DNA from: Candidatus Brocadia sp.
GTDB taxonomy: Bacteria; Planctomycetota; Brocadiia; Brocadiales; Brocadiaceae
NCBI GenBank assembly: GCA_021650915.1
Contig: CP091279.1
Coordinates: 3,000,001 to 3,032,000 of the forward strand
Length of the DNA: 32,000 nt
Reading direction: 5' to 3'
The number at the start of each line of letters is the position of its first letter. Position 1 is the first letter of the stretch. The translations under genes were made by a program, and so were the position numbers. The notes under the pieces are model-generated. The model searched no databases. It was given only the letters and a program-made list of their open reading frames with translations, and was not told the DNA's origin. Shown one piece after another: positions 635-28,472 of this stretch.

Positions 635-853
635 AGAGGGCGCCTGAGGCCAGACCTTCACAGGCCGTCTGAGATGCAATCGGCAAATGAAATAGCAAAG
701 AAAGGAACTTGTGTGCAACTTAACTGCGATTGACAAACAAGTCAAGGAAAGGTTGCAATGTTTTCGTCAAAAGTATAATTTTGTATTTCAATAGTAGCGC
801 AAACACGTGGAGCAGATAGCACCAAAAGTAGGTCTCCATTATTAATGGTATGG

Positions 854-1019
854 GAATTTCGTAACACTTTAGTTTTTTGAAAAAGTAGGGGCGAAGCATT
901 TGCCGGCTTGGGGTGTGAATACATTTATGCCAATTTATGGCAAATGCTTCGCCCCTACACCGTGCGGTAACATCGTTATTATGGTAATTTTTCAAAAAAC
1001 TAAAGTGTTGCGGAATTTC
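854..1019. repeat. Composite palindromic intergenic element. About 31-bp terminal inverted repeats (854-884 / 988-1019) enclose a hairpin with a 20-bp stem (885-904 / 939-958).
   Basis: Read directly. GAATTTCGTAACACTTTAGTTTTTTGAAAAA is nearly the reverse complement of TTTTTCAAAAAACTAAAGTGTTGCGGAATTTC. GTAGGGGCGAAGCATTTGCC ... GGCAAATGCTTCGCCCCTAC is a perfect stem. The core 885-996 recurs at 26841-26952 in reverse orientation. Confidence 0.85.
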
Positions 1020-1119
1020 AAAGTGACGCTTTTCTCTCAAAGAATAAAGGGTGCTCCATTGAAAACATTCTTTTTCTCATGTCCCGCTGAAAATAAAAAC
1101 ATTACGAGGGACTTTCCCC

Positions 1120-1149
1120 TTGACATTTCATAAAGATTAACCGTATAAT
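1120..1149 (+). promoter_or_regulatory. Sigma70-type promoter candidate for the mreBCD-mrdA operon
   Basis: TTGACA (1120-1125), an 18-nt spacer, then TATAAT (1144-1149). It sits about 200 nt upstream of the mreB ATG. Confidence 0.5.
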
Positions 1150-1355
1150 TTTGCCGTTATTGTATTACCAAGTAACATCTTCCTTACTTTTAGCAAGTTT
1201 TTTTCACCCCCCCTTAGCCCGCCTTTGATAGGGGGGGAAGGATTTGGTTGTGGCTTTGCTGCCATTATGGTCTTCAGTTACTAACTATAAAACTTCAGCA
1301 CGTGTGAAAAACTGACCCTTAACAAAAAAATGCCCTCAAAAGAGAAAAGATCCGA

Positions 1356-2411
1356 ATGCACCCATTAGATTTTATATTAGGTTTCGTTTCCACAGACATG
1401 GGAATCGATCTTGGCACGGCAAACACCCTTGTTTGTATACCGGGACAAGGGATCGTGCTGTCGGAACCCTCGGTTGTTGCCGTGAAGCCAGGTACAAACA
1501 AAGTGCTTTTAAACGGGAATGCCGTGGGAAACGTTGCGAAGGCCATGCTGGAAAAGGCACCGAGCAGCATCTCCGTTATCCGCCCGCTCAAAAACGGCGT
1601 TATTGCGGACTTTGACATCACCGAGGCGATGCTCAAATATTTTATCACCCGGGTGCATAAACGGAAATGGGGTGTCCGACCCAGGGTACTGATTGCAATC
1701 CCGTCCGGTATTACCGCCGTGGAGAAACGGGCAGTCGTCAACTCCGCTGAGCGCGCCGGCGCAAGGGAGGTCTACCTGGTTTCCGAACCAAAGGCAGCGG
1801 CAATCGGCGTCGGCCTTCCGGTAGGTGAGCCAATAGCCAGTATGATTGTGGACATCGGGGGTGGAACCACCGAGGTGGCGGTTCTATCACTCGGTGATAT
1901 TTTTACTCATGAGAGTCTCAGGATTGCGGGAGATGAATTTGACGAATCGATCCTCCAATACATACGAAAAACCTACAACCTCGACATCGGGCACCGCACG
2001 TCGGAGCAAATAAAGATAGAAATCGGCTCTGCCTATCCTTTAGAAGAAGAACTCACGATGGAAATACGCGGGCGCGATGCCATCGCCGGTTTGCCCAGGG
2101 CGGCAACCATTACTTCTGAAGAGATCAGAGAGGCGTTAAAAGAGCCTATCGATAAGATTGTAGGCGCGGTAAAATCAGCCCTGGAAAGGACGGCGCCGGA
2201 ATTAGCTTCAGATTTAATAACCAATGGACTGGTCGTGGTAGGCGGGGGCGCATTGATCAGAGGCATGGACAAGCTGCTGATAGCAGAAACGGGTCTTCCG
2301 GTGCAAATAGGCAATGACCCTTTAACAGCCGTTGCAAGAGGAACGGGTTATCTCCTCGAAAACCTTGATCTATTTAAGTCTGTTCTGCAGGATGAGGACA
2401 TCCACCCCTAG
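1356..2411 (+). CDS. mreB: Rod shape-determining actin-like protein MreB
   Basis: 351-aa ORF. It has the N-terminal phosphate-1 motif GIDLGTANTLV, DIGGGTTEVAV, and C-terminal GGGALIRGMDKLL. It is followed by mreC and mreD. Confidence 0.95.
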   Translation: MHPLDFILGFVSTDMGIDLGTANTLVCIPGQGIVLSEPSVVAVKPGTNKVLLNGNAVGNVAKAMLEKAPSSISVIRPLKNGVIADFDITEAMLKYFITRVHKRKWGVRPRVLIAIPSGITAVEKRAVVNSAERAGAREVYLVSEPKAAAIGVGLPVGEPIASMIVDIGGGTTEVAVLSLGDIFTHESLRIAGDEFDESILQYIRKTYNLDIGHRTSEQIKIEIGSAYPLEEELTMEIRGRDAIAGLPRAATITSEEIREALKEPIDKIVGAVKSALERTAPELASDLITNGLVVVGGGALIRGMDKLLIAETGLPVQIGNDPLTAVARGTGYLLENLDLFKSVLQDEDIHP

Positions 2412-3287: not shown

Positions 3288-3372
3288 AACCCCGGCGGGG
3301 TTAATTTCAGTTTTTAAAAAAACTTCATTATGAATAATAGCGTAGGGGGGAGGTCTGAAACCCGCCCCTACG
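3288..3372. repeat. Two GC-rich hairpins of the intergenic repeat family, located in the mreC-mreD spacer
   Basis: AACCCCGGCGGGGTT (3288-3302) and CGTAGGGGGGAGGTCTGAAACCCGCCCCTACG (3341-3372). The same GTAGGGG...CCCCTAC and AACCCCnnnGGGGTT stems occur at 885-958, 11671-11700 and 27010-27067. Confidence 0.6.
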
Positions 3373-3893: not shown

Positions 3894-5822
3894 ATGTTTT
3901 CTTTCCGTTTCAAGACAATATTTATTCTTTTTATTTTGTTTTTTGTCTGCATCATTGTCCGGCTCTTTCAGCTCCAGATTGTCGAAAGCGACAAATACAA
4001 AGGCATCTCAAAAACCCGTCGCATCGCCACCCATCCCCTGGATTCAACACGGGGTTCGATTTTCGACAGAAACGGGAATATCCTGGCCATCGACCAGCAC
4101 ACCTTTGACATATCTGTGAATTACAAGAACCTGCTCTATTGCTCTATAACGCTCATGAAAAAAACCATTCCACGAATTACCGGACTGGAAGTGCACAAGC
4201 AGACAAAAAAATCGTGCCGTGATTGCCATGCAAATCAGGATATCTGGTTGAAAAAACTATCCCATCTGCTGAATATTCCGCAAGTGAAGTTATTAGAATG
4301 TACAGGCCAGGCAATCGAAAAAGTCGAGAAATTAAAGCAGAATATGGAACAAAAATACGGCAGGGCAATCCGCATAAAAGAAGAAACAGATTTTTATCCC
4401 ATTGTTTCAGAAGTTGACTGGGAAAAGATTATTCAAATAGAGACAAAGCAAGATGATTTTCCCGGCATACGTGTTACTCCCCGGCCGGAAAGAATTTATC
4501 CGGAGCAAACGCTCGCCTCACACATCTTAGGGTATATAGGAAAACTTACCGCGGACGAATGGCAGGCACAGAGCGATAAATGGAATAATTTCATCCTCGC
4601 TTCCAGCAGCGCCGGCCACGAAACCATGTCGCTGCTCTATGACGGCTATGCTGAAAATGACATGATCGGCAGAACGGGGGTCGAGGCATACTACGAAGAC
4701 GAATTGCATGGATTGCGAGGCAAGAGATTTGAAGAAATTACCTGCAAAAACACCCAGATTGAAAAAGTCGTGCTGGAAAGGCCTCCCGTTCCTGGAAACG
4801 ACCTTTATCTCACCATCGACAGCCAAATTCAGGCCCATGCAGAAAAATCACTTGGTACAAATTCAGGCGCTATTATCGTTATGAACCCCTGGACAGGCGA
4901 AATAGTCGCCATGGCCAGCAACCCACGCTTTAATCCCAATACGGTTGAAAAGGACTTTCGCAAACTGAACAAGCACCCCTCAAAGCCCTTTCTCAACCGT
5001 GCCATACAGGGGGCATTGCCGCCAGGATCCATTTTCAAAGTGATTACGACAACCGCAGCCCTGAGTTCAAATAGAATAACAACCCAAACGACCTTTGAGT
5101 GTCCGGGTTATATCAGATATAAGAATATCCTTTTTCGATGCTGGTCGGAGTATGGCCACGGATTGGTTACCGCCGAGGACGCTATTCCCTATTCCTGCAA
5201 CGTATTTTTCTTTGAGACGGCAAAGATGCTTCCCGGGGAGACGTTATACTCATGGGCAAAAAAGTTTGGTATTGGCGAGAAGACAGGCATTGACCTTCCC
5301 CATGAAAAGGCTGGCAATATACCAAAATTAGCCACCACTGCTTCGACCATGAACGTTGCCATCGGGCAGGGGGCGTTGCTTACCACGCCGCTTCAGCTGG
5401 CACGGGTGTATGCGGCCATAGCAAACGGCGGGACGTTAGTGCAGCCCCATATTCTCTTAAAAATTACCAATAGCCAGGGGGAAACCGTTCGGACCTTTCA
5501 ATCGAAAAATATCCAGAAACTCTCCGTGTCGCCTGATATTATCAACATGTTGCGCACCTCCTTGCAGGAGGTTGTCAGCCGCGGCACTGCTAAAGGCAAG
5601 GGACTGGATGTCTATAAGGTCGCCGGTAAAACAGGCACGGCCGAAACCGGACGTCATAAAGACAACCATGCCTGGTTTGTTGGTTACGCACCCTATGATA
5701 ACCCGGAATACTGTTTTGTCATCCTCGTGGAACACACACCGGGACATGGCGGAGACGTTGCGGGGCCTATTGCCAGAGAACTTATGACACTGTTGTTTCC
5801 GGAAATAGACGCGGCTTCATAG
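3894..5822 (+). CDS. mrdA: Penicillin-binding protein 2 (elongasome transpeptidase)
   Basis: 642 aa with an N-terminal TM anchor. It carries the transpeptidase motifs SxxK (GSIFK), SxN (YSCN) and KTG (KTGTA). It lies downstream of mreBCD. Confidence 0.9.
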   Translation: MFSFRFKTIFILFILFFVCIIVRLFQLQIVESDKYKGISKTRRIATHPLDSTRGSIFDRNGNILAIDQHTFDISVNYKNLLYCSITLMKKTIPRITGLEVHKQTKKSCRDCHANQDIWLKKLSHLLNIPQVKLLECTGQAIEKVEKLKQNMEQKYGRAIRIKEETDFYPIVSEVDWEKIIQIETKQDDFPGIRVTPRPERIYPEQTLASHILGYIGKLTADEWQAQSDKWNNFILASSSAGHETMSLLYDGYAENDMIGRTGVEAYYEDELHGLRGKRFEEITCKNTQIEKVVLERPPVPGNDLYLTIDSQIQAHAEKSLGTNSGAIIVMNPWTGEIVAMASNPRFNPNTVEKDFRKLNKHPSKPFLNRAIQGALPPGSIFKVITTTAALSSNRITTQTTFECPGYIRYKNILFRCWSEYGHGLVTAEDAIPYSCNVFFFETAKMLPGETLYSWAKKFGIGEKTGIDLPHEKAGNIPKLATTASTMNVAIGQGALLTTPLQLARVYAAIANGGTLVQPHILLKITNSQGETVRTFQSKNIQKLSVSPDIINMLRTSLQEVVSRGTAKGKGLDVYKVAGKTGTAETGRHKDNHAWFVGYAPYDNPEYCFVILVEHTPGHGGDVAGPIARELMTLLFPEIDAAS

Positions 5823-11574: not shown

Positions 11575-11750
11575 ATAATTACCTTGAAAAAATCCCGGTG
11601 GAGAATGAGCTGCGTCTTCGCAACGATTTGATTTTGAAGATTTCCCAAAAAAACAGCATGTTGCCTGCAGCGTAGGGGCAGGCTTGAAACCTGCCCCTGC
11701 AAATCAATATCTTCCATACAGAAGTTTTTTCAAAAAGGCGAATTGTTACA
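11575..11750. repeat. Degenerate member of the modular intergenic repeat family
   Basis: It contains CCTTGAAAAAATCCCG (compare 26951-26968), the hairpin CGTAGGGGCAGGCTTGAAACCTGCCCCTGC (11671-11700), and TTTTTTCAAAAAGGCGAATTGTTACA (11725-11750; compare 27136-27160 and 988-1012). Confidence 0.5.
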
Positions 11751-13999: not shown

Positions 14000-15330
14000 T
14001 AAACGAGGGCGGATCAACCATTGCGTTGGACCTCTTTGGGTCAATGACACGTGGATCTCATCCCTCTCTCAAGAAAACAGGTGCGAACCAGCCTTTCATG
14101 CCCTCTTGCCCTGTTTTACTTGATTAGATTGCCAGTGATCAGTCTGTCATTATATTTCTCACTCTTCCTCCACACGCTTAAAGATATTGCCGCTATCTTA
14201 CGACATACTGCATTATAGGCATTGTCATGACCGATGCCTTTCAACCGCAAGGTATCGTAATAGTTCCTTAAACCGCTCTTACCCTTTAAAACCGAATGTC
14301 CTGCCATCTTGTATACGCATTTTAATATCCGATTTCCCCAAATCTTTTCACTCCCATATCCCCTCCCATCACTTATCCTCTTATGCCTCACCAACCCACA
14401 GTAGCTGTAATATTTGTACTTACTGCTAAACCTCTCCGGGTCTATTACCTGTGATACGATCTTCGCCGCCTGGATACTCCCAATGCCGGGAATGCTCTTG
14501 AGATATTTTATCTCTTTAAATCCCTTACTGCATCGAACGATCTCTTTTACATATTCCTGCCTGCCTTCTTCCATCTTCTCTAAAAGCTGATAGATCTGCG
14601 TGCCAATAAATTGAAAGTCTCTTCGCTCTAATCCTTCCAGGAAACTCTCGTCGTTATATAACGCTTCACCTTTGATTTTCTTCCCACTTTTCCGAAATAA
14701 GGATTTGTATCGGTTCTTTAGCCTCACACCCTCTTCAATGAAATCCTGATACCCGGACATTAAACTCCTTAACCTCTCCCTCTTTGAACCATCATGATAT
14801 ACCGGTACGAGAAAACCTCCTCGCAAAAGATTCGACAGCTTCCTGGCATCCATCTTGTCCGTCTTTTTCTTCTTGTAGTCTCCGTTTGCTACTGGATTGC
14901 ATACGATCAACTCATCTACTTCTGGTCTCAATATCTCATACAGCCAGTTGCTTAATTCACACTCTTCAAAGGTCAGTTTCTTAACACCCTCCACTCCCCT
15001 CAAGTACTTCACCAAAAGCCGACCATTGCTCTCAATCGTAGTGTTGTCTACTTCCCTCCCTCTTTCATCCGTCACATTGAATGTACATGTTGACGAATGT
15101 GCATCCAATCCTATATACTTTATCATACAGCCTCCTTTCCAAGGTTTAAAGACTTACCACCTTAATTGGTGGTCTAAAGCCTTTATGATATTTAATATCA
15201 CAAAAGGTTATCGCCTATTCAAGGCTTTTTAACCTCCTTGGAAGGACGCTGCTTTTTCATATTACCATTGCGAGTGAAGCGAAGCAATCTTTCACTCATA
15301 AAAAACGGTACCTCCTGAAAAGGGTTTGTG
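14000..15330 (-). mobile_element. IS110-family insertion sequence; boundaries are approximate and not determined
   Basis: A single transposase ORF with non-coding ends. IS110 elements lack clear terminal inverted repeats, and there is no second copy in the window, so the ends cannot be fixed from the sequence alone. Confidence 0.5.
14116..15126 (-). CDS. IS110-family (DEDD) transposase/recombinase
   Basis: 336 aa. It has the N-terminal IGLDAHS motif (DEDD RuvC-like) and the C-terminal Transposase_20-type motif IPGIGSIQAAKIVSQVIDPERFSS...YCGLVRHKRISDG. Confidence 0.9.
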   Translation of the reverse strand: MIKYIGLDAHSSTCTFNVTDERGREVDNTTIESNGRLLVKYLRGVEGVKKLTFEECELSNWLYEILRPEVDELIVCNPVANGDYKKKKTDKMDARKLSNLLRGGFLVPVYHDGSKRERLRSLMSGYQDFIEEGVRLKNRYKSLFRKSGKKIKGEALYNDESFLEGLERRDFQFIGTQIYQLLEKMEEGRQEYVKEIVRCSKGFKEIKYLKSIPGIGSIQAAKIVSQVIDPERFSSKYKYYSYCGLVRHKRISDGRGYGSEKIWGNRILKCVYKMAGHSVLKGKSGLRNYYDTLRLKGIGHDNAYNAVCRKIAAISLSVWRKSEKYNDRLITGNLIK

Positions 15331-21075: not shown

Positions 21076-23854
<2,779 letters not shown>

Positions 23855-23881: not shown

Positions 23882-24982
23882 TTACTTCGTTTCAATTGGC
23901 ATAATAACATCCAGCTGTTCGTAGCCCGTCCTGATCAAAGCTGCACTATCGCAATCGCTAAGTTCAATAACTACCGTATCATTATCCGAAACTTTCAATG
24001 CATCTATAACGTATTCCGGATCAAAACTAATTTCCAAATCCGGTCCATCATATCCAACGGCAATTTCCAACTCTGCCTCCCCCACGTCCGCGGTCCTGGA
24101 CGAAAGCAGCAACTTTCCCTGCCGGAAGATAAACTTTACTATACGATATTCCTCATTCGTCATAAACGAGGCCATCCGCACCCCTGATAACAATTGATTT
24201 CTGTCAACTTCTACTCTCTTGTCATTTCCCTTCGGTATAAGCTCCTCATATTTTGGATACTGACCCTCTATTAACTGTGAAATAATTTCACCCTTTTCAC
24301 CCGCAAAACACACCTGCTGTTCGCCCATCCCTAATGTTAAAATCCCTTTGCATTCCGACACAAACCGTTGCAGAAACGTTAAACACTTCACCGCCACTAT
24401 TCCATCAAACGATATCCCTTCAGGGTTGTTTACCTTACGTTTAACACTGGACATCCTGTTTCCGTCTGCGGCAACCATGATAATATAGTCATCCATAACC
24501 CTCACAAAGATACCGCACAACATACTTCGCACCTTAACCGTCGATACAGAATGAACAACCCTTCCCACCATATCAGCGATAATTCCTCCGTCTACTTCAA
24601 CAAGACCCTTGGTCTTTATCCTACCAATTTCCGGAAACTGCCTGAAATCTTCTCCCGCTATCTTGAAGTGCCCACCTCCCGATTTCAAGGTGCAATTTCC
24701 TTCTTCAATTGACACAGAAATTTCATCATTTCCAGCCCACTCTCTTAACACATTATTTACCCGAACCGCCGGCAGGACAATGCCACCTTCTCCTTCACAT
24801 TTTCCCGCCGGTAACACGTATTTAACCAAAACTTCCAAATCAGTAGCAACAAATTCTACCCGCTCATTTTTTACCTCAACCTTAACGCCTTTTAACACCC
24901 CTTTCAGTGCGGATGTTGGAACAATACCAGCTACCAAGTTAAAACCACCGAACAAGTCTTTTCCTGAGAAATGTAATTTCAT
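23882..24982 (-). CDS. dnaN: DNA polymerase III beta sliding clamp
   Basis: 366 aa. The N-terminus ...VEFVATDLEVLVKY is typical of DnaN. Position is directly downstream of dnaA. Confidence 0.9.
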   Translation of the reverse strand: MKLHFSGKDLFGGFNLVAGIVPTSALKGVLKGVKVEVKNERVEFVATDLEVLVKYVLPAGKCEGEGGIVLPAVRVNNVLREWAGNDEISVSIEEGNCTLKSGGGHFKIAGEDFRQFPEIGRIKTKGLVEVDGGIIADMVGRVVHSVSTVKVRSMLCGIFVRVMDDYIIMVAADGNRMSSVKRKVNNPEGISFDGIVAVKCLTFLQRFVSECKGILTLGMGEQQVCFAGEKGEIISQLIEGQYPKYEELIPKGNDKRVEVDRNQLLSGVRMASFMTNEEYRIVKFIFRQGKLLLSSRTADVGEAELEIAVGYDGPDLEISFDPEYVIDALKVSDNDTVVIELSDCDSAALIRTGYEQLDVIMPIETK

Positions 24983-25223: not shown

Positions 25224-26588
25224 CTACTTCTGTAATTCACTTTCCAGCTTTTGAAGTATAATACTAAGGTTTTTGTCTTTTTTTAACATCTTGGTTATTT
25301 TTTCGTCTGCATGAATTACCGTTGAATGATCTCTTCCTCCTAAATATCCGCCAATTTCCATAAGCGACATCTTCGTTAATTTCCTTGACAGGTGCATGGC
25401 TATTTGTCTGGGAAGCGCAAGACTTCTTGTTCTGCACCGTGACTGAAGCTGGGAGACGCGTATGTTGAACCTCTCAGAGACGGCCTTAATGACCGTTTCT
25501 ATACTAATGTACCTTTTGTTGCCTGAAAGCTCCCAGACAATTTTTCTCATACGGTCGAGGGTAATACTATTTTTCGTTATCTTTTCCTCCCGGCTCAGAC
25601 GCGCAATAGCTCCTTCGAGCTCACGAATGCTTCCGGTTACGTTCTCTGCAAGATATGATGCGGCTTCATGCGATAGATTAATACCCCATAATGACGCTTT
25701 TTTCTCCGCTATTGCGATGCGCGTTTCCCGAGTCGTATTATCAATACTGCAGAGAAGCCCCCATTTAAAACGGGAAATAAGCCTGTCTTCAAGAGTGGCA
25801 ATTAATTCAGGCGGACAATCACTCGTGATAACAATTTGTTTTTTGGCGTTATAAAGGGTATTAAAGGTATGAAAAAATTCCTCTCTGCTTTCCTGAGAAT
25901 TTTCAAATGCCTGTATATCATCTATAAGAAGTGCATCGATGTTTCTGTAGAAAGCTCTGAAAGAGTCCCAGCTATTTGTTCGTATTGTTGAAATGTAGTG
26001 ATTTACAAAACGTTCGCAGGGCACATAAAGGGTCTTCATCTTGTGTTTGGATGACAATACGTTATTTATAGCATGCAGAAGATGGGTCTTTCCGAGACCG
26101 GAAGCTCCATGAATAAACAGAGGATTATACGCAAGGCCTGGCGTTTCTGAAACGGCAAAGGCTGCTGCGTGCGCTAATCTGTTGCAGGGACCTACAACAA
26201 AATTTTCAAAGCTATAATATTTGTTTAAAGGCACATGATAATTTTCCTCAGGAGGTTTCTTTCCTGCAAAGAACTCCTCCGGTGGAAAAGACGTAGCTGA
26301 TAATTTATCAAAGACCTCTTCCTCAGTGGAAAAGTGAACTTCTCTTGACGAGTTTAATACTTTATATACTGCGCTCGAAAAAAGGTCGTGGTAATGGCTT
26401 TTAAGCCACTCTCGGATAAAAGAATTCGGCGTAACAAAGGTAATTCTATTGCTGGTAACGGATGATACCCTAAGACACGAAAACCATATTTCAAACTGTT
26501 GAGCGGTAACAACCTCTTTTATTATGGATAATATGCCTTTAAGGATAAAATCCCTCTCGTTATTGGAAACTACAGGTGTTTCTAGCAT
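25224..26588 (-). CDS. dnaA: Chromosomal replication initiator protein DnaA
   Basis: 454 aa. It has Walker A GASGLGKTHLL, an AAA+ domain III, and the domain IV signature GGRDHSTVIHA. Confidence 0.97.
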   Translation of the reverse strand: MLETPVVSNNERDFILKGILSIIKEVVTAQQFEIWFSCLRVSSVTSNRITFVTPNSFIREWLKSHYHDLFSSAVYKVLNSSREVHFSTEEEVFDKLSATSFPPEEFFAGKKPPEENYHVPLNKYYSFENFVVGPCNRLAHAAAFAVSETPGLAYNPLFIHGASGLGKTHLLHAINNVLSSKHKMKTLYVPCERFVNHYISTIRTNSWDSFRAFYRNIDALLIDDIQAFENSQESREEFFHTFNTLYNAKKQIVITSDCPPELIATLEDRLISRFKWGLLCSIDNTTRETRIAIAEKKASLWGINLSHEAASYLAENVTGSIRELEGAIARLSREEKITKNSITLDRMRKIVWELSGNKRYISIETVIKAVSERFNIRVSQLQSRCRTRSLALPRQIAMHLSRKLTKMSLMEIGGYLGGRDHSTVIHADEKITKMLKKDKNLSIILQKLESELQK

Positions 26589-26840
26589 TGCAGAGTGCGG
26601 TTCATTTTTCTCAATAGGTTGATAAGCGTTTGAAGTGCAAACTTGTAATTACACGAAGGAACCAGACTATAGAAAAGAACGCTGGAAAGAAAATATCTCT
26701 TGTGGAAATTCCAACGCACGCTAAGGAAAAAATCGGGTAGAATGATACCAAGAAAAGAATGGCAAGTCAAACGATAATACTTCATAATCTTCTTATCAAG
26801 GTTATTAACAGGCACTTAAAGAGATCGATTTGCTCAAGCG

Positions 26841-26952
26841 TTTGAAAAATTACCATAATAACGATGTTACCGCACGGTGTAGGGGCGAAGCATTTGCCAT
26901 AAATTGACATAAATGTATTCACACCCCAAGCTGGCAAATGCTTCGCCCCTAC
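26841..26952. repeat. Second copy of the 112-nt hairpin repeat core, in reverse orientation relative to 885-996
   Basis: The reverse complement of 885-996 aligns to 26841-26952 with 2 mismatches by my manual alignment. It includes the stem GTAGGGGCGAAGCATTTGCC / GGCAAATGCTTCGCCCCTAC. Confidence 0.85.
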
Positions 26953-26961
26953 CTTTTGAAA

Positions 26962-27117
26962 AATCCCGAAGGGATGACATGATTATAGAAAAAACGCGCC
27001 ACCCTATTCAACCCCGTAGGGGTGGAATATCGGGAAAATAGCGATACTATGCCACCCCTGCGGGGTTAGCCATAATTGCATAACCATATGCTATAATCAT
27101 GACATCCCTTCGGGATT
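26962..27117. repeat. 156-nt nested long hairpin
   Basis: The 27-nt arms are AATCCCGAAGGGATGACATGATTATAG (26962-26988) and CTATAATCATGACATCCCTTCGGGATT (27091-27117), matching at 26/27. An inner inverted pair is AACCCCGTAGGGGTGG (27010-27025) / CCACCCCTGCGGGGTT (27052-27067). Confidence 0.8.
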
Positions 27118-27135
27118 ACTGAATGGATACGAGAA

Positions 27136-27160
27136 TTTTTCAAAAAGCTAAATTGTTACA
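27136..27160 (+). repeat. Recurrent 25-nt module TTTTTCAAAAARCTAAAKTGTTRC
   Basis: TTTTTCAAAAAGCTAAATTGTTACA occurs here. Related copies are at 988-1012 and 11725-11750 (plus orientation) and, inverted, at 854-884. Confidence 0.5.
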
Positions 27161-27213
27161 AAAAATTTTGTTTTTTTGGGAGGATGCCTTCAGAAACTAC
27201 CAGTATTATTTTG

Positions 27214-27242
27214 TTGACATCCTATCATGTCGCAGGTATCTT
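27214..27242 (+). promoter_or_regulatory. Sigma70-type promoter candidate for the riboswitch leader
   Basis: TTGACA (27214-27219), a 17-nt spacer, then TATCTT (27237-27242). Confidence 0.45.
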
Positions 27243-27282
27243 AATGGTGTTAGAAACGATTAATGACCAAACAAATAAACAA

Positions 27283-27376
27283 ACACGACAAGGGCAAACC
27301 CTGAGTGATCGGGGGACGCAAAGTAAAGGGTCTTTCAACTAATAAGGATGTAGTTAAAGACGTACCTTATCCTTTA
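27283..27376 (+). promoter_or_regulatory. Candidate c-di-GMP-I (GEMM-I) riboswitch aptamer
   Basis: ACACGACAAGGGCAAACC-CUGA-GUGA-UCGG-GGGACGCAAAG matches the conserved AGGGCAAACC ... GNRA ... GGGACGCAAAG core of GEMM-I. The comparison is to the Vc2 aptamer, from memory. A second helix spans 27324-27376 (UAAAGG/CCUUUA, GUCUUU/AAAGAC, AACUA/UAGUU). Confidence 0.6.
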
Positions 27377-27387
27377 GCAAAAAAGAT

Positions 27388-27443
27388 AGCCTTACTGCCG
27401 AAGATGTTTCACAACAATCTTTGCAGTAAGGCTTTTTTATTTT
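27388..27443 (+). terminator. Rho-independent terminator (putative riboswitch expression platform)
   Basis: The stem is AGCCTTACTGC (27388-27398) / GCAGTAAGGCT (27423-27433), with an inner AAGAT/ATCTT pairing. It is followed by TTTTTATTTT. Confidence 0.75.
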
Positions 27444-27487
27444 AAGGAACCTTTGTTAAAACTTATTTAACCGAACGGGAGGAGTTT

Positions 27488-28324
27488 ATGCCAAAAGGAA
27501 TTGCACTAACAACGGGACTGAATGCCGTCAGTCCGGCGCACTATGGTGGCTGGTCAGGAGAACTCAACGCATGCGAAGCGGATGCAAAAGATATGGCGGA
27601 GATTGCCCGGTCAAAAGATTACGAGGTAAAGACCTTGCTCACCAAAGAAGCCACGCGGAAGAATGTTATCGATGGGATCATAAAGGCTGCCGGCACACTG
27701 ACGTCCGGTGATATCTTTATGCTAAGTTATTCCGGCCACGGCGGACAGCTTCCCGACATGAACAGCGATGAGGATGATGCACAGGATGAAACGTGGTGCT
27801 TATATGATGGAGAAATGGTTGATGATGAGCTCTATACATTGCTTGGAAAATTTGCGAAGGGTGTTCGTGTCCTGGTCTTTTCTGATAGTTGTCACAGCGG
27901 TACCGTGACGAAGCAGGCATACTACCAATCTGCCATGAGGGCTGTGGGTGCAAAAGGGATTGCTCCGGAAGTCCGGTATCGTTTTATGCCAATGGAGGTC
28001 GCCGTTCGCACCTATCGCGATAATAAAAAATTTTATGACCCCATCTTAAAGGACGCTAAATTGAAGGAATCGCGCGATGCCGTAAACGCCTCGGTGATCC
28101 TCATCTCTGGCTGCCAGGATAATCAGCTTTCTGCCGATGGCGCCTTTAATGGCTTGTTCACTGCTAATTTGCTGCAGGTGTGGAATGAGGGAAAATTCAG
28201 AAAAGGATATCGGGCTTTTCGTCGTGCTATTGTCAATCGCATGCCCCCAGACCAGACGCCGAATTATTTCCGTGTGGGCGAGACTAGCCGTGCTTTTGAA
28301 AGACAAAGACCATTTACAATTTAA
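27488..28324 (+). CDS. Caspase-like cysteine peptidase (peptidase C14, orthocaspase-type), single domain
   Basis: 278 aa. The catalytic His is in LSYSGHGG and the catalytic Cys in VFSDSCHSG. An RBS (GGGAGGAG) lies upstream. There is no signal peptide and no accessory domain. Confidence 0.85.
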   Translation: MPKGIALTTGLNAVSPAHYGGWSGELNACEADAKDMAEIARSKDYEVKTLLTKEATRKNVIDGIIKAAGTLTSGDIFMLSYSGHGGQLPDMNSDEDDAQDETWCLYDGEMVDDELYTLLGKFAKGVRVLVFSDSCHSGTVTKQAYYQSAMRAVGAKGIAPEVRYRFMPMEVAVRTYRDNKKFYDPILKDAKLKESRDAVNASVILISGCQDNQLSADGAFNGLFTANLLQVWNEGKFRKGYRAFRRAIVNRMPPDQTPNYFRVGETSRAFERQRPFTI

Positions 28325-28472
28325 CGGGACATTTTATATTGCCACGATGAAAATTATTGTCCTTGTATGGCAATGAAGGGAAATTCGTGTAAACGATAGG
28401 GAATAACCATGACATAGGCTTAGGGAAAAATCGCTCCTTGCGTTCACGCGCGCGAGCAGTTAGGAGGGTTAT

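Follow-up and report, generated by a model that had tools for sequence, protein, structure and literature searches.

Which signal controls the caspase-like protease gene that lies beside dnaA in an anammox planctomycete? The gene was found in a 32,000-nt stretch of Candidatus Brocadia fulgida DNA (GenBank assembly GCA_021650915.1, contig CP091279.1, positions 3,000,001 to 3,032,000 of the forward strand), and this whole stretch is called the window here. The gene product is identical to KKO19335.1. A first-pass annotation, made from the letters of the window and its open reading frames, had proposed a riboswitch for c-di-GMP (cyclic dimeric guanosine monophosphate), i.e., one of the c-di-GMP-I (GEMM-I) class, with a terminator in the leader of the gene. 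In the present analysis, the leader element at 27284-27403 is almost certainly a genuine c-di-GMP-I-type riboswitch. By its sequence features, it is probably an ordinary c-di-GMP sensor that acts as an ON switch, by antitermination, for the gene behind it, which encodes a metacaspase.

Riboswitch aptamer and its predicted ligand contacts

The window was scanned on both strands with 4227 Rfam families at their gathering thresholds, and only the best model per clan was reported. A single match was found, i.e., at 27284-27403 of the plus strand to RF03167 (c-di-GMP-I-GGC), with 66.1 bits against a gathering threshold of 59, an E-value of 1e-13, and the full model (1-80) covered. A second model of the c-di-GMP-I clan (CL00126) also scored above its own threshold at this locus. 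Because this is the sole match above gathering in the window, at such an E-value, the aptamer goes beyond chance resemblance. The covariance-model check suggested by the first-pass annotation was thus positive. Its class call held for the clan, the strand, the leader position and the terminator platform, but the best model was RF03167 and not RF01051.

The aptamer is 120 nt long with 27403 as its last base, 27 nt longer than had been drawn before. It had been taken to end at 27376, whereas the covariance model extends to 27403, and the second helix formerly placed at 27324-27376 is mostly the P2-tip insertion, which differs completely between sister cassettes. The bases quoted earlier for 27283-27323 are present in the sequence, and the 6-bp CCCUGA/UCGGGG helix with its GUGA tetraloop was located at 27299-27314. 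The parts of the aptamer are listed below, with equivalents given in the numbering of the Vc2 riboswitch.

27284/27403, 27286/27400 and 27287/27399, + strand: P1, from the covariance-model alignment
27293, + strand: equivalent of G20, unpaired, mapped via the Rfam alignments to Vc2 numbering
27294/27319 and 27295/27318, + strand: equivalents of the pairs G21-C46 and C22-G45
27299-27304 / 27309-27314, + strand: P1b, 6 bp, CCCUGA/UCGGGG
27305-27308, + strand: GUGA tetraloop capping P1b
27317, + strand: equivalent of C44, own mapping from the consensus
27320, + strand: equivalent of A47, from the Rfam alignments
27322-27335 / 27382-27396, + strand: P2, with bulges A27326 and A27388-G27389
27336-27381, + strand: P2-tip insertion of 46 nt in the covariance-model alignment, outside the conserved aptamer
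27389, + strand: equivalent of G83, bulged, own mapping from the consensus
27385-27396, 27398 and 27399-27403, + strand: 3' parts placed by the covariance model, i.e., P2 3' strand, C92 and P1 3' strand

In a pair-by-pair check, all modelled aptamer pairs were standard (21/21). Both C27317 and G27389, the latter bulged, are invariant across all cassettes, and their assignment to C44 and G83 is a consensus mapping only. Inside the P2-tip insertion, a local hairpin (27342-27351 / 27360-27370) was found in minimum-free-energy (MFE) folds. An outer extension of P1, i.e., pairing of the A-rich leader with GAUGUUU past the aptamer, was unsupported, with a mean duplex energy of -4.1 kcal/mol versus -3.5 (standard deviation 1.8) for shuffled leaders.

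The residues G20, A47 and C92 contact c-di-GMP (PMC4744006, PMC6140456). Their equivalents are all canonical in the window, i.e., G27293, A27320 and C27398, and the reading as an ordinary c-di-GMP sensor is drawn from them. The core consensuses of RF01051 (...gggGACGCAAAgCc..., i.e., GACGCAAAg) and RF03167 (...GGGACGCGAAgCc..., i.e., GACGCGAAg) differ only at the position after ACGC, which is A47 of Vc2, with A in the former and G in the latter. In the window this stretch is ACGCAAAG, where base 27320 is A, and the RF03167 consensus ACGCGAAG with its G is not matched. The score passes the RF03167 gathering threshold, yet the base that defines the variant is absent. Going by the model consensus, "GGC" is taken to stand for G20/G47/C92. 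In the structure lines of the two models, P1 is written as base pairs in RF03167 and as unpaired in RF01051, and this pairing plausibly explains the higher RF03167 score. The element was read as an ordinary c-di-GMP-I riboswitch despite that score.

Terminator and proposed switching mechanism

The other signals of the leader, together with the gene that they would serve, are as follows.

27214-27219 and 27237-27242, + strand: sigma-70-like promoter, TTGACA, 17-nt spacer and TATCTT, 10/12 consensus positions
27388-27443, + strand: intrinsic terminator with an 11-bp stem, 27388-27398 / 27423-27433
27400-27405 / 27417-27422, + strand: inner stem of the terminator, 6 bp, with C27399 bulged between the stems
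27406-27416 and 27433-27443, + strand: terminator loop and U tract (UUUUUUAUUUU), respectively
27477-27484, + strand: ribosome-binding site GGGAGGAG, 3 nt 5' of the ATG at 27488 and outside every predicted switch helix
27488-28324, + strand: predicted target gene, 278 aa, encoding a peptidase C14 of the GSU0716 family, i.e., a bacterial type-I metacaspase

The promoter-like site had been noted in the first pass and was confirmed, and transcription is predicted to start near 27249-27251. In six of the sister cassettes described below (L001, L090, L108, L137, L138 and L158), a perfect TTGACA was found that is followed 16-18 nt further on by a -10-like hexamer ending 23-52 nt 5' of the aptamer, by consensus match only. 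No promoter-like site was found by consensus scan from the terminator to the ATG.

The terminator alone folds at -24.2 kcal/mol, and its hairpin dominates the MFE structure of the full leader. A simple terminator scan missed it solely because its loop is longer than 8 nt. The 11-bp stem and the U tract had been described before and were recovered with six further pairs, but the terminator does not lie immediately downstream of the aptamer, as had been stated. Aptamer bases make up its 5' arm, i.e., the P2 3' strand CCUUACU and the P1 3' strand together with G83 and C92. The overlap covers the last 16 nt of the aptamer, 27388-27403 (CCUUAC and UGCCGAAG), so the aptamer and the terminator are mutually exclusive. 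In folds of 27284-27445, the terminator structure reached -50.1 kcal/mol versus -24.7 kcal/mol for the aptamer-constrained structure. Since the terminator fold is far more stable, the default state would be termination.

The proposed switch would work in the following way. Transcription would start about 35 nt 5' of the aptamer. With c-di-GMP bound, P1, P2 and the junction nucleotides (G83 and C92) would keep 27385-27403 in the aptamer, the terminator 5' arm (27388-27405) would be sequestered, and RNA polymerase would read into the metacaspase gene, which begins 44 nt past the U tract. Without ligand, the more stable 17-bp terminator hairpin would form, and transcription would stop at the U tract, giving a leader transcript of about 190 nt. 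The ON direction is proposed because the ligand-stabilised aptamer would withhold the terminator 5' arm. In this scheme, binding of the ligand, the in vivo direction of control and the start of transcription are inferred.

Sister cassettes in Brocadia

Sister cassettes were obtained by a pattern scan of metagenome contigs, aimed at aptamers of the GEMM-I type in which P2 is long and P1 is that of the window. The scan returned many diverse riboswitches. Twenty distinct cassette copies were analysed, the window and its ortholog L001 included, and 19 were used in the structure alignment. Nearly the whole aptamer core and the entire terminator (GCCTTACTGCCGAAGATGTTT...ATCTTTGCAGTAAGGCTTTTTT) are common to these approximately 20 near-identical cassettes. 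The P2 tip is wholly different among them in sequence and in length (33-52 nt as excised). When 20 metagenomic sister cassettes were searched with Rfam, 18 scored 60-70 bits on RF03167, and two, with the same core, scored best on RF01051 at 55-58 bits (gathering 35). The aptamer of L001 scored 66.2 bits.

The aptamer pairing is well kept in these copies. P1b is paired at 6/6 positions in 20/20 copies and is always capped by a GNRA loop, i.e., GUGA, GCAA, GCGA or GUAA. Compensatory changes were found at two of its positions, C-G to U-A at one and U-A to G-C or C-G at the other. In the alignment of 19 cassettes, 96.9% of the cells of the aptamer structure were paired and four pairs were changed on both sides. 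The pairing counts were reached by 0/500 shuffles and by no slid register. Each of the 20 cassettes has the terminator hairpin, with energies from -20.5 to -28.2 kcal/mol and 98.8% of cells paired. Three more Brocadia-type copies (L087, L195 and L099) fell outside the regular expression, and the hairpin is visible in them by eye.

The proteins encoded downstream are annotated as Brocadia (B. sapporoensis, B. fulgida and UTAMX1/2), by which the cassette is considered a feature of Brocadia. At two separate loci, the genes behind the cassettes encode Pvc16_N/DUF4255 proteins. Elsewhere they encode an M6 metalloprotease that has BACON domains, large secreted proteins with LamG/CBM9/Big_5 and with PKD/LamG domains, a sigma-54 response regulator, a lipoprotein with DUF4347, a protein with DUF7948 and possibly WrbA. 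Such mixed, surface-oriented targets are typical of GEMM riboswitches (PMC7266159).

The cassette was located directly 5' of Pvc16_N/DUF4255 genes (E = 1e-33 and 5e-31) in L090 (1354-2190), L108 (5643-6479), L138 and L153. The last of these is arranged as follows.

L153, cassette 430-590 and open reading frame 818-1396, minus strand, in reverse-complement coordinates

The Pvc16 family is associated with contractile injection systems. This arrangement hints at c-di-GMP control of contractile injection systems in Brocadia.

Metacaspase gene and its relatives

The product of the regulated gene was matched to Pfam PF00656 (Peptidase_C14) with an E-value of 3e-26, and the ribosome-binding site and ATG assigned earlier to a caspase-like gene were confirmed. 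It was also aligned end to end, i.e., over residues 1-278, with PDB 3BIJ "GSU0716" of Geobacter sulfurreducens (E = 7e-118). The catalytic His and Cys motifs are found in the translation as YSGH84GG and DSC135HSG. From these matches, the product is a caspase-fold metacaspase with a His-Cys dyad and a predicted protease. Choi and Berges (PMC3734836) place GSU0716 among the bacterial type-I metacaspases, as one that lacks a prodomain. In the literature found, a crystal structure of GSU0716 was reported, with no function, substrate or regulation. No strong match of the metacaspase to a defence-system model was obtained.

Homologues of the metacaspase were collected from 80 species, with 52-89% identity and near-constant length. 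They are distributed over many bacterial phyla and archaea (Nitrososphaera, Methanothrix and Bathyarchaeia) and occupy unrelated gene neighbourhoods. This distribution suggests strong constraint and horizontal transfer of the gene.

Rfam scans covered the metacaspase-gene loci of these 80 species. A riboswitch of the clan directly 5' of the metacaspase gene was found only in L001 and L019. L001, from another Brocadia, has the same cassette with about 150 extra nt ahead of the gene. L019, from a metagenome-assembled genome of Syntrophaceae, has an aptamer unlike that of the window, which scores 41.6 bits on RF01051 and in which the G21-C46 pair is flipped and P2 is short. The terminator of L019 likewise uses the aptamer 3' strand, here GCUGCCA. 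Because the aptamer of L019 is very different while the terminator overlap is the same, the predicted regulatory logic is one that was assembled twice, in two phyla, before orthologous genes.

Other placements were also seen. In L002 and L106, which represent other Brocadia lineages, a cassette closely follows the metacaspase gene, at 4157-4259 in the former and at 2242-2346 of the minus strand in the latter, and in L006 the riboswitch is on the opposite strand. The L106 cassette precedes the gene of a lipoprotein with DUF4347 and a GHG...GCH motif. The equivalent downstream site of the window, i.e., the gap 28325-28472, holds no riboswitch. In B. pituitae and several Brocadia contigs, the leaders are unrelated save for the last approximately 45 nt before the ATG, and this part is conserved in relatives without the riboswitch. 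A general link between riboswitch and metacaspase was rejected, as a directly upstream riboswitch was found in 2 of the 80 species.

Alternative explanations

Several points weigh against an ordinary c-di-GMP sensor that switches the metacaspase gene on. The top model is that of the GGC variant, at 66.1 bits over a gathering threshold of 59, and we know of no established ligand for this variant. P1 consists of three pairs only. In secondary-structure energy alone, the terminator fold is favoured over that of the aptamer by approximately 25 kcal/mol, so read-through has to prevail by kinetics and may be weak. The search pattern and the regular expression fixed many positions, and the invariance of the cassette was therefore partly imposed. 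The terminator is essentially invariant, i.e., it shows conservation and no covariation. No riboswitch was found at B. pituitae, at three Logan contigs (L200-L202), at L003 and in 76 of the 80 species, and since most close relatives are without it, the link is not essential to the function of the gene. The case was made from sequence and computation.

The high RF03167 score raises the reading that the element is a true c-di-GMP-I-GGC variant, with another ligand or with c-di-GMP bound with altered properties, the more so as RF03167 is also the best model for L001 and for 18/20 sister cassettes. This is unlikely, because A, not G, is found at the A47 position in the window and in all sister cassettes, and the base pairing of P1 in RF03167 can account for the extra bits. 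Another model of the same clan also passes its threshold here, and the two sisters with the same core are best on RF01051. Cassette versions with G47, i.e., true GGC, were not found among 203 fetched loci (0/203). A riboswitch of the GEMM-Ib type that senses cyclic GMP-AMP (c-GAMP), or a bispecific one, would have the same fold and clan, and GEMM-Ib members have been concealed within GEMM-I collections (PMC7266159). Here, however, such a ligand is extremely improbable. A20 defines that class (PMC6140456), and the specificity positions, whose comparison with GEMM-Ib had been advised in the first pass, show G27293 in the window and not A20. The G20 equivalent was found in all sister cassettes too, though this base was fixed by GGCAAACC in the search pattern. 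Wild-type Vc2 with G20 binds c-GAMP with a Kd of approximately 10 uM versus picomolar for c-di-GMP (PMC6140456).

The mechanism may also be questioned. In the first-pass annotation, the aptamer ended near 27376, the terminator was separate, and CCUUAU (27365-27370) competed with CCUUAC (27390-27395) for GUAAGG (27426-27431), with the direction undefined. CCUUAU, CCUUUA and CCUUAC are all in the leader, and UAAAGG (27324-27329) could pair with CCUUUA (27371-27376). However, such an aptamer would have neither the P1 3' strand nor C92, and the covariance model assigns 27385-27403 to the P2 3' strand, C92 and the P1 3' strand. CCUUAU is paired locally in the tip hairpin in MFE folds, and CCUUAU and CCUUUA are found only in the window and L001, whereas the other 18 cassettes keep core and terminator without them. 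This mechanism is highly improbable, and the decoy model, CCUUAU versus CCUUAC, was rejected because the decoy is not conserved and CCUUAC is the P2 3' strand itself. It is also very unlikely that the cassette is decayed or non-regulatory, with its hairpin a constitutive terminator or insulator beside the dnaA region and the metacaspase expressed from elsewhere. The multiple copies, near-identical between loci like a spreading repeat, the very strong terminator and the palindromic repeat elements just upstream would fit such an element. Yet all ligand-contact and tertiary-contact nucleotides and every modelled pair are intact, and the changes relative to L001 are compensatory or preserve the GNRA loop (GUGA to GCAA, U-G to U-A). 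A good promoter immediately precedes the element, with no other one from the terminator to the ATG, and because dnaA is divergent, there is no upstream gene that needs termination. An ordinary c-di-GMP sensor acting by antitermination is the reading kept in what follows.

Genomic surroundings

The locus belongs to the chromosomal dnaA region, in which dnaA (25224-26588), dnaN (23882-24982) and gyrB (21076-23520) are all on the minus strand. Housekeeping genes, i.e., mreB, a PBP2-type transpeptidase gene and lpxB, lie farther upstream, and an IS110-family transposase gene is placed at 14116-15126 of the minus strand, amid housekeeping genes. dnaA is divergent from the caspase-like gene, and the 900-nt gap between both holds the riboswitch. 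In a search with the consensus box, no cluster of DnaA boxes was found in the gap 26589-27213 between dnaA and the riboswitch, and the sole near-consensus box nearby is within dnaA (26523-26531).

Nested long inverted repeats were found at 26879-27117, between dnaA and the riboswitch promoter. The repeat 26879-26899 / 26932-26952 is 21 nt long with 100% identity, and the repeat 26962-26988 / 27091-27117 (27 nt, 96%) encloses another at 27010-27029 / 27048-27067 (20 nt, 90%). The region 26870-27125 has a folding energy of -121 kcal/mol (z = -11.5), and the whole-window scan gave no Rfam match in the inverted-repeat region. A palindromic element of approximately 74 bp (GTAGGGGCGAAGCATTTGCCA...TGGCAAATGCTTCGCCCCTAC) is present twice in the window, at 885-958 and 26879-26952, with opposite orientation of the loop. 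Its terminal motif GTAGRGRCR occurs seven times versus 0.8 expected, also at 3363-3371 and 11672-11680. The element looks like a member of a family of repetitive extragenic palindromic (REP) or miniature inverted-repeat transposable element (MITE) type.

The P2 tips of several sister cassettes (L137, L174, L124/L147 and L092) are perfect palindromes. Their ends resemble the 74-bp repeat, i.e., GTAGGGGCG...CGCCCCTAC in L137 and GTAGAGACG...CGTCTCTAC in L124 and L147. This resemblance suggests that palindromic repeats were inserted into the P2 loop of the riboswitch.

Comparison with known systems and significance

The window element shares with Vc2 of Vibrio cholerae (RF01051, PDB 3IRW) the two-hairpin aptamer, the AGGGCAAACC and GGGACGCAAAG strands, the GNRA-capped first hairpin, the G20, A47 and C92 contacts and the same-strand position in the 5' leader, and C27317 and G27389 are the putative counterparts of its C44-G83 interhelix pair. 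It differs in having GUGA instead of GAAA, in a P2 without the CUAAG/UAUG 11-nt receptor of the RF01051 consensus, in the 46-nt P2-tip insertion, in a terminator that overlaps the aptamer 3' end, which predicts ON, and in the metacaspase target. Common to it and RF03167 are the sequence of P1 (cacga...ccgaag) and the base of P2 (GGguC...GacAGCC), whereas the conserved G of that model is the canonical A27320 in the window. The c-GAMP riboswitch Gs1761 of Geobacter sulfurreducens (GEMM-Ib) is built on the same scaffold, with A20 there and G here.

The class-II riboswitch before Clostridioides difficile pilA1 is similar to the switch predicted here in its ON direction, its terminator platform and its aggregate-state function at high c-di-GMP, but it has a class-II aptamer with another fold, and the class-I Cd1 is an OFF switch (PMC4744006). 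Among the known targets of c-di-GMP riboswitches there are already proteases, e.g., ZmpI in C. difficile (PMC4744006). On the protein side, the gene product aligns with GSU0716 (PDB 3BIJ) over its full length and shares the metacaspase His and Cys motifs.

The RNA class, the ligand contacts and terminator platforms are established, and the metacaspase is not known to have been described as a target. In the literature searched, whose coverage was incomplete, no c-di-GMP riboswitch linked to a metacaspase or described in anammox bacteria was found, in agreement with the earlier remark that a second-messenger riboswitch before a caspase-family protease is not known to have been described. The RNA itself would already be picked up by genome annotation based on Rfam. 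As the riboswitch class is textbook knowledge, what is gained concerns the target genes and not RNA biology. The near-invariant, multi-copy cassette of aptamer and terminator with its variable P2 tip is of added interest.

The riboswitch gives a concrete regulatory input for the widespread and conserved GSU0716-type metacaspases. Expression of the metacaspase would be expected to rise with c-di-GMP, a signal for sessile or aggregated life, which is relevant to anammox bacteria as they grow in granules. The metacaspase may have a physiological role at high c-di-GMP, i.e., in the aggregate or biofilm state. The cassette also marks other Brocadia genes as predicted c-di-GMP targets and provides a sequence-based map of a partial regulon. 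Anammox bacteria cannot be grown in pure culture (PMC11224092). The broader view, which is about as likely as not, is that c-di-GMP directly gates the production of a protease of the caspase family, both in Brocadia and, separately, in a member of the Syntrophaceae, and thereby couples the aggregated or biofilm state to a protease of the cell-death type. In Brocadia, the metacaspase would then be one arm of a genus-wide cassette regulon that includes Pvc16-type genes and surface proteins.

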